DNA of 64,000 nt from Escherichia coli (lineage in GTDB: Bacteria > Pseudomonadota > Gammaproteobacteria > Enterobacterales > Enterobacteriaceae): the NCBI RefSeq assembly GCF_016026235.1, contig NZ_CP065613.1; one strand, 5' to 3'. Within the stretch, counting starts at the first letter, position 1, and every line of letters starts with the position of its first letter. The notes beneath the pieces are model-generated. The model was not told the DNA's origin, made no database searches, and saw only the letters and a program-made list of their open reading frames with translations. Both the position numbers and the translations under genes were made by a program. Of the stretch, positions 51,571 through 60,828 are shown in pieces.

Positions 51571-53706
51571 TTACTCGCCCTGTTCAGCAGCCGGAGCTTC
51601 CGGTGCTGCAGCAGGTTGAGACTGCTCAGTCGCTTCTTTAATGCTCAGACGGATACGGCCCTGGCGATCAACTTCCAGAACTTTCACCGGTACTTCCTGA
51701 CCCATCTGCAGGTAATCGGTCACTTTCTCAACGCGTTTGTCAGCGATTTGAGAGATGTGGACCAGACCTTCTTTACCGCCGCCGATGGCAACAAATGCGC
51801 CAAAGTCAACGATACGGGTCACTTTACCAGTGTAGACGCGGCCCACTTCGATTTCTGCAGTGATCTCTTCGATACGACGAATAGCATGTTTCGCTTTCTC
51901 GCCGTCGGTCGCTGCGATCTTCACAGTACCGTCATCTTCGATTTCGATGGTAGTGCCAGTTTCTTCGGTCAGGGCACGGATAACAGAGCCGCCTTTACCG
52001 ATAACGTCTTTGATCTTATCCGGGTTGATCTTGATGGTATGGATACGCGGTGCGAACTCAGAGATATCGCCACGCGGCGCGTTGATCGCCTGTTCCATTA
52101 CGCCCAGGATATGCAGACGCGCACCTTTAGCCTGGTTCAGCGCAACCTGCATGATCTCTTTGGTGATACCTTCAATTTTGATATCCATCTGCAATGCAGA
52201 GATACCCTCGCGGGAACCCGCAACTTTGAAGTCCATATCGCCCAGGTGATCTTCGTCGCCCAAAATGTCAGACAGTACAACGTAGTTGTCGCCTTCTTTC
52301 ACCAGACCCATTGCGATACCCGCAACGGCAGCTTTGATCGGCACACCTGCGTCCATCAGCGCCAGAGACGCGCCGCACACGGAAGCCATAGAAGAGGAAC
52401 CGTTGGATTCAGTGATTTCAGACACAACACGTACGGTGTACGGGAATTTGTCCATATCCGGCATGACTGCCAGCACGCCGCGCTTCGCCAGACGACCGTG
52501 ACCAATTTCACGACGCTTCGGAGAACCGACCATGCCGGTTTCGCCTACGGAGTACGGAGGGAAGTTGTAGTGGAACAGGAAGGTATCGGTACGTTCGCCC
52601 ATCAGTTCATCAAGAACCTGCGCGTCACGAGCAGTACCCAGCGTTGCGGTAACCAGCGCCTGCGTTTCACCACGGGTGAACAGCGCAGAACCGTGAGTAC
52701 GCGGCAGCACGCCAGTACGCACATCCAGACCACGGATCATATCTTTTTCACGACCGTCGATACGCGGTTCGCCTGCCAGTACGCGGCTACGAACAACGTT
52801 TTTCTCGATAGCGTGCAGAATTTCACCCAGTTCGTTTTCGTCCAGGGTTTCGTCTTCAGCAAGCAGCGTCGCGATGGTTTCAGATTTGATGACATCAACC
52901 TGCGCATAACGCTCTTGTTTGTCGGTGATGCGGTAAGCATCGCTCAGGCGAGCTTCAGCCAGTGCAGCAACGCGCGCGTTCAGCGCTTCGTTTACCGGCT
53001 CCGGCTGCCAGTCCCAACGCGGTTTACCGGCTTCTTTCACCAGTTCATTGATGTTCTGAATAACAACCTGCTGTTGTTCATGACCGAACACTACTGCGCC
53101 CAGCATCTGGTCTTCGCTCAGCAGTTCAGCTTCAGATTCAACCATCAGTACAGCGGCTTCAGTACCCGCAACAACCAGATCCAGTTTGCTCTCTTTCAGC
53201 TCGTCCTGAGTCGGGTTCAGTACGTACTGGTCATTGATGTAACCTACGCGGGCAGCACCAATCGGGCCATTGAACGGAATACCAGACAGAGACAGTGCTG
53301 CGGAAGCACCAATCATCGCGACGATATCCGGGTTAACCTGCGGGTTAACAGAAACCACGGTGGCGATAACCTGAACTTCGTTGACGAAGCCTTCCGGGAA
53401 CAGCGGGCGAATCGGGCGGTCAATCAGACGCGCGATCAGGGTTTCGCCTTCGCTTGGACGACCTTCACGACGGAAGAAGCTACCCGGGATACGACCAGCA
53501 GCGTAGGTACGCTCCTGATAGTTAACGGTCAGTGGGAAGAAGTCCTGACCTGGTTTGGCTTTTTTCTGGCCAACAACGGTAACAAATACCGCGGTGTCAT
53601 CCATGCTAACCATAACAGCGGCAGTAGCCTGACGAGCCATCATGCCGGTTTCCAGAGTCACGGTGTGTTGGCCGTACTGGAATTTACGAACGATCGGATT
53701 AAGCAA
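51571..53706 (-). CDS. pnp: polynucleotide phosphorylase
   Basis: ORF track 51571..53793; TTG start giving [16 protein letters not shown], 711 aa. Confidence 0.9.
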
Positions 53707-53762
53707 TGTAATATCCTTTCTCTTTCTTAGACAGTACCTTACGGCACTGGTGTTAATACCCG

Positions 53763-53936
53763 ATCTTCTGCGCATCCTCGCGACTAATGACAACCCTAAC
53801 CCAGCTCTATGTGGGTAAAGCCTCTCATTAGCCGCGCGAACCTCTGCAACGGAAGATCATTCATAGCAACAATACATTAGTTTCCAGTGAATTGCTGCCG
53901 TCAGCTTGAAAAAAGGGGCCACTCAGGCCCCCTTTT
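53763..53936 (+). ncRNA. sraG: small RNA SraG (PsrO), antisense to the pnp leader
   Basis: Position between rpsO and pnp on opposite strand, recalled from K-12 annotation; + strand hairpin ggggcc-actca-ggcccc followed by T-run at 53915..53936. Confidence 0.4.
53909..53936. terminator. bidirectional rho-independent terminator (rpsO on minus strand)
   Basis: aaaaaaggggccactcaggcccccttttct. Confidence 0.7.
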
Positions 53937-53952
53937 CTGAAACTCGCAAGAA

Positions 53953-54318
<366 letters not shown>

Positions 54319-55789: not shown

Positions 55790-55875
55790 CGTTGGCCTGA
55801 TAAGACGCGCCAGCGTCACATCAGGCAATCCATGCCGGATGCGGCGTAAACGCCTTATCCCGCATGGAACCCTAA
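55790..55875. repeat. REP-like palindromic elements
   Basis: ggcctgataagacgcgccagcgtcacatcaggc and gccggatgcggcgtaaacgccttatcccgcatgg. Confidence 0.6.
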
Positions 55876-60545: not shown

Positions 60546-60606
60546 GCCCACCCCCAAGACATAAAAAAAGGGCCTAAAGCCCAGTTATTCTGTAGTCAGA
60601 TAACAA

Positions 60607-60631
60607 AAAACCCCGATAAATCGGGGCTTTA
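60607..60631 (-). terminator. hairpin between metY and rimP (operon leader attenuator)
   Basis: ccccga-taaa-tcgggg with A6 run (T-run on minus strand). Confidence 0.5.
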
Positions 60632-60751
60632 TATAACTGAACCCTATAACCGCAACTGCGGTCTGGAGCACTTTCCAGAAGGATTTTTTCAAATCCCACT
60701 ACGAAGGTCGAAGTCTTCACAGTATATTTGAAAAAGGACTCTAAGGGAAAG

Positions 60752-60828
<77 letters not shown>

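Follow-up and report, generated by a model that had tools for sequence, protein, structure and literature searches.

The closest described system is sraG of Escherichia coli K-12 (b4449, RF00082), the gene of an RNA that appears in print as 'SraG (PsrO)' (PMC4676190) and 'PsrO/SraG' (PMC6735904). Fontaine et al. (2016, RNA 22:1560, PMC5029454) used cRT-PCR and Northern blots to map its primary transcript, which is 216 nt long. The RNA has a defined, reproducibly seen 5' triphosphate end, starts 42 nt upstream of the 174-nt form from 2001, and has its major 3' ends, with some read-through, at the bidirectional terminator that is also rpsO T1 (PMC5029454). RNase III cleaves both pnp and SraG at mirror sites of the stem-loop, and Hfq is not needed and has almost no effect on SraG (PMC5029454).

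The same study describes the action of SraG on pnp (PMC5029454). A mutation in the -10 box, near the pnp Shine-Dalgarno (SD) sequence without overlapping it, abolished the 216-nt RNA and raised pnp mRNA and PNPase about 1.3-fold, and overexpression of SraG led to less pnp mRNA with a shorter half-life and to less PNPase. With full-length SraG in vitro, the 30S toeprint on pnp was lost and new RNase III cuts arose in the duplex, whereas with a 5'-truncated RNA starting 42 nt downstream the toeprint stayed and pnp was not repressed; the 5' 42 nt are essential for repression. The same -10 box is the site of a mutation, described earlier, that makes autoregulation defective. The abundance of SraG is low, and the promoter mutant showed no phenotype in growth, cold shock, motility or biofilms. 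The SraG signal that remains in this mutant may come from a second start, which is predicted 339 nt upstream of PSraG.

With GadY/gadXW and SymR/symE, SraG shares perfect complementarity to its target, independence of Hfq and a duplex that is cut by RNase III (PMC5029454), but its target is a housekeeping exoribonuclease and its action is fine-tuning rather than on/off switching or toxin control. Listeria RliD and Enterococcus ref41 are likewise transcribed opposite pnpA, RliD from the same position as SraG, between pnpA and rpsO (PMC5029454). Two further elements, the pnp RNase III stem-loop and rpsO T1, occupy the same DNA as SraG but act on the minus strand transcript.

The sraG gene of the window

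The window is a stretch of 64,000 nt of E. coli DNA (assembly GCF_016026235.1, contig NZ_CP065613.1). Over the 24 kb from 40000 to 64000, FDAARGOS_943 is the only E. coli strain at 100% identity and the next-best genomes are about 99.3-99.4% identical; the window is non-K-12 E. coli, although its sraG spacer matches K-12 exactly. An 801-bp query around the spacer is found at 99% identity or more in 5406 of the 5425 complete E. coli genomes. The features of the locus, and the other RNA elements found in the window, are as follows.

51571..53706, minus strand: pnp coding sequence (PNPase, 711 aa from a UUG start), from the ORF list and the K-12 annotation
53704..53720, minus strand: pnp translation initiation region, with the SD GAAAGGA at about 53714-53720 and the UUG start at 53706-53704
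53709..53714, plus strand: putative sraG promoter -10 box TAATAT, ending 7 nt before the start at 53721
53721..53936, plus strand: SraG (PsrO) primary transcript, 216 nt, K-12 b4449 mapped through a 100% identical alignment
53762..53858, minus strand: stem-loop R of the pnp leader, where RNase III acts in autoregulation, from the MFE fold
53765..53936, plus strand: Rfam RF00082 SraG match (cmscan), close to the older 174-nt 'SraG-S'
53909..53914, minus strand: U6 tract of the rpsO terminator (A6 on the plus strand), from the sequence
53915..53931, both strands: intrinsic terminator hairpin (rpsO T1 and sraG terminator), from the terminator scan and the inverted-repeat search
53932..53936, plus strand: C and UUUU tract where SraG ends, the K-12 annotation ending at 53936
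53953..54222, minus strand: rpsO coding sequence (ribosomal protein S15), from the ORF list and the K-12 annotation
9558..9934, minus strand: RNase P RNA (rnpB), RNA family match
60563..60663, minus strand: rimP leader, RNA family match
60755..60828 and 63734..63817, minus strand: two tRNAs, RNA family matches

The rpsO gene ends at 53953 and pnp starts at 53706, so the spacer between them runs from 53707 to 53952; with the gene ends recomputed it has the 246 bp given in the preliminary description. That description had also given SraG of K-12 as lying in this spacer opposite pnp, and had named an alignment to K-12 sraG as the check. We ran this alignment, and it bears this placement out: all 301 bases of 53680-53980 are identical to K-12 MG1655 (NC_000913.3), and the K-12 ncRNA b4449 ('small regulatory RNA SraG', 3311183..3311398, opposite pnp and rpsO) maps to 53721..53936 on the plus strand, with both neighbouring genes on the minus strand. 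The identity extends over the 216 nt of the mapped transcript, including its 5' 42 nt, and over the whole spacer. Neighbours, strands and terminator are also the same, leaving no sequence-level difference between the two sraG genes. The Rfam model independently matches the plus strand over its full length (model positions 1-177 of 177; 164.3 bits against a gathering threshold of 50; E 6.8e-31), and we found no RF00082 match on the minus strand of the locus. What the spacer contains is the already described sRNA SraG/PsrO, along with the terminator of rpsO and the leader of pnp.

In the coordinates of the window SraG starts at T53721, adjoining the pnp SD. The TAATAT between this SD and the UUG start codon is probably the sraG -10 box, an assignment made because of its spacing to the mapped start and the published description of the promoter (PMC5029454), with the exact hexamer being our choice. 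The sraG promoter was not picked up by a scan for the sigma-70 consensus, and we found no convincing -35 box, TTTACG standing 20 bp from TAATAT. Among 107 distinct Enterobacterales spacers the exact TAATAT is present in 36, and a lenient search for TANNNT near the pnp start finds a -10-like hexamer in 90, a count of no diagnostic value, as the AU-rich spacer between SD and start codon of pnp occupies the same stretch. The second start predicted in K-12 (PMC5029454) would fall at about 53382 on the plus strand, inside pnp in the antisense direction.

SraG covers hairpin R at 53762..53858, and its complementarity to the pnp 5' leader continues without a break to the ribosome-binding region. Its 5' end, next to the SD, is consistent with the loss of the toeprint. 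In the mechanism that we propose, T53721 would be the first transcribed base, with the -10 box of the promoter placed between the ribosome-binding site and the UUG codon of pnp. Transcription would run antisense through the pnp 5' leader with its RNase III stem-loop R and stop at 53915..53931, at the hairpin by which rpsO transcription, coming from the opposite side, is ended as well. As its complementarity to the pnp leader is perfect, SraG would pair with the pnp and rpsO-pnp mRNAs as far as the SD. This pairing would prevent loading of the 30S subunit, and the duplex would be cut by RNase III at new sites; by these two effects pnp mRNA and PNPase would be modestly lowered, and SraG would form a fine-tuning layer on RNase III/PNPase autoregulation and CsrA control. 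The claim of the preliminary description that SraG affects pnp mRNA is experimentally documented for the identical K-12 sequence (PMC5029454), and the reported lowering of pnp and PNPase and the 30S block are expected to carry over to this locus. By its sequence, the source strain probably expresses SraG as K-12 does. We are highly confident that 53721..53936 on the plus strand is the SraG/PsrO gene, encoding a cis-encoded antisense RNA that modestly lowers pnp mRNA and PNPase.

Two other assignments in the spacer were considered and rejected. On the plus strand, a single ORF of 20 aa or more begins within SraG (53809..53880, 23 aa). It is not credited with a coding role because it spans the variable hairpin loop, in which the species carry different indels, several of a length not divisible by three. 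For the pnp P2 start, the published RNase III sites at +39 and +77 together with the hairpin geometry point to about 53865 +/- 3 on the minus strand, where there is no clear -10/-35 pair.

Other RNA elements lie nearby. A full-length ribosomal S15 leader (RF00114, 117.6 bits, 54166..54280, minus strand), the rpsO autoregulatory element, is found just upstream of rpsO, and it is also present in 19 of the 20 other genera scanned. The infB-rbfA spacer contains a match to naRNA4/CssrE (RF02564) at 55794..55864, with 75.6 bits on the minus strand and 39.2 bits on the plus strand; its paired-hairpin sequence resembles a REP/BIME-type repeat element.

The terminator shared with rpsO

The preliminary description placed a bidirectional GC hairpin, flanked by an A-run and a T-run, at 53915..53931, and here the sequence, the terminator scan and the inverted-repeat search agree. 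The hairpin consists of GGGGCC (53915-53920), an ACTCA loop and GGCCCC (53926-53931), i.e. a perfect stem of six G-C pairs with a 5-nt loop. On the plus strand the order is A6-GGGGCC-ACTCA-GGCCCC-C-T4, which is the layout of a bidirectional terminator. The terminator scan found five terminator-like sites in 1.1 kb, this one among them, against 1.0 +/- 1.0 in shuffled sequences. The further statement that the plus strand transcript ends in an appropriate intrinsic terminator also stands, since the hairpin is followed by CUUUU, with the refinement that there are just four U's after an extra C.

The T-tract is thus asymmetric, with six uninterrupted T on the rpsO strand against C and T4 on the SraG strand. 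The hairpin is genuinely two-sided, and its plus strand U-tract is the weaker one. The asymmetry extends beyond E. coli: in Enterobacteriaceae the uninterrupted T-run after the core has a mean length of 6.0 on the strand of rpsO, against 2.3 on that of SraG, which favours the rpsO direction. The core GGGGCC..GGCCCC itself is present in 102 of the 107 distinct Enterobacterales spacers. A strict finder had returned 'none' for most Erwiniaceae, a result of its search window rather than of a real absence, and a looser search for the core motif finds it in 16 of 16. Downstream of the rpsO stop codon and ahead of the terminator, the motif GAGTTTCAG (rpsO sense; 53939..53947 on the plus strand) is nearly invariant in 67 Enterobacterales spacers. 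This motif probably corresponds to the region of rpsO mRNA, upstream of T1, that RNase E cleaves.

The strand that carries the conserved structure

The SraG stem-loop is the mirror image of stem-loop R, and the whole spacer folds better than its shuffles on both strands (z = -3.75 on the plus strand and z = -5.37 on the minus strand). For the comparison across species, 120 Enterobacterales loci were collected with a degenerate pattern of the PNPase N-terminus. Of these, 110 gave spacers, with lengths from 201 to 535 bp and most at 241-250 bp; the other ten (including Salmonella L048 and L057 and Klebsiella pneumoniae L118) were dropped because the upstream sequence was too short to find rpsO. 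The strand test was carried out on an alignment of 67 distinct spacers of E. coli-like length, across which the AAGGA of the pnp SD is kept.

In this alignment the consensus structure computed with RNAalifold has an energy of -30.0 kcal/mol in the pnp sense and about -4.6 to -4.9 kcal/mol in the SraG sense. The 21 conserved pairs of hairpin R contain 220 G.U cells and no A.C cells in the pnp sense; therefore the hairpin R core (53771..53848), which also shows compensatory changes, is 99.8% paired when read on the pnp strand and 84.1% paired when mirrored as SraG. Covariation in the pnp sense amounts to 65 double-change cells against 23.3 +/- 3.5 in shuffles, a value reached in none of 500. The pnp-sense structure is 98.8% paired, compared with 43-60% when the partners are slid by one to three columns. 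In the same 67 spacers we did not find the pattern of a fold selected on the SraG strand, with pairs kept, and G.U tolerated, on the plus strand. The selected structure lies on the pnp/rpsO strand, i.e. the minus strand. The lack of a plus strand fold signal limits the claim of a selected SraG fold, and the identity of SraG is unaffected by it.

Of 20 representative Enterobacterales genera, 19 have a full-length RF00082 match above threshold, and in each of them it lies antisense to pnp. A full SraG match is also found in the Salmonella locus L048, which had been dropped from the spacer set. The one genus of the 20 without a match above threshold is represented by the Sodalis endosymbiont of Henestaris halophilus (L058), in which the S15 leader is present; in a Sodalis MAG (L068) most of the hairpin R core is lost in the alignment. 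These two cases may reflect a decay of pnp autoregulation in reduced genomes. Some spacers exceed the usual length of about 245 bp by 100-290 bp, namely those of Hartigia (L035, 535 bp), Providencia (L045, 397 bp), an Enterobacteriaceae MAG (L059, 398 bp), and Kluyvera and Pseudocitrobacter (L016, L037 and L117, 346-357 bp). The extra length points to insertions in the leader. The RF00082 match in L016 is extended to 269 nt.

On the minus strand, the SraG terminator is rpsO T1, the SraG fold mirrors stem-loop R, and the putative -10 box lies within the pnp initiation region. Since each feature of SraG overlaps a minus strand element in this way, expression of SraG in other genera cannot be deduced from sequence conservation. 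The conservation of the SraG family is explained by constraints on the opposite strand, and it neither supports nor refutes a function outside E. coli.

The same overlaps could be read to mean that only the rpsO terminator and the pnp leader matter, and that the plus strand RNA is incidental antisense transcription without a selected function, arising where an AT-rich initiation region mimics a -10 box and a terminator happens to work both ways. Much of the comparative evidence is in line with this: the conserved structure is specific to the pnp sense (99.8% against 84.1% pairing, 220 against 0 cells, -30.0 against -4.6 kcal/mol), the T-run is optimised for rpsO (6.0 against 2.3), and the -10 box is variable. 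The weak effect in vivo and the low abundance of the RNA (PMC5029454) fit it as well, as does one RNA-seq study in which the homology-annotated PsrO/SraG of Dickeya dadantii went undetected (PMC6735904). The experiments in K-12, however, describe a discrete 216-nt RNA that is reproducibly seen with a 5' triphosphate, and a -10 mutation that abolishes this RNA and is followed by a rise of pnp mRNA and PNPase (PMC5029454). Moreover, it is the full-length and not the 5'-truncated RNA that blocks the 30S toeprint and lowers pnp expression, and the earlier autoregulation-defective mutation lies in the same -10 box (PMC5029454). We consider an incidental origin of the RNA in E. coli to be very improbable.

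That SraG might act mainly in trans on distant mRNAs, with pnp as a side target, has a precedent in Yersinia pseudotuberculosis, where SraG was reported to repress the YPK_1206-1205 operon, with no report of an effect on pnp (cited in PMC5029454). This operon is, however, without homologs outside Yersinia, computational and transcriptomic searches in E. coli gave no trans targets, and SraG is almost unaffected by Hfq (PMC5029454); we give this explanation a negligible chance. Our preferred reading stays with a cis-encoded antisense RNA of pnp.

Implications for annotation and for the SraG family

The locus is of little value as a discovery, being a characterised sRNA gene that was recognised correctly from sequence alone. 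Its practical value is in annotation: in the one PGAP-annotated RefSeq record that we inspected (NZ_AP018488.1), sraG is not annotated. The Rfam model spans approximately the 5'-truncated form, which is inactive on pnp (PMC5029454).

The result added by this analysis is the comparison of the two strands in 67 spacers. The strand asymmetry calls for caution, as homology alone is no evidence for an expressed sRNA in other genera. Tentatively, and with less than even confidence, we suggest that the Rfam SraG family may largely detect mirror images of the rpsO terminator and of the RNase III hairpin in the pnp leader. Many homology-annotated sraG genes outside Escherichia and its close relatives might then be unexpressed or non-functional, and SraG would represent a lineage-restricted co-option of antisense transcription from the AT-rich pnp initiation region.
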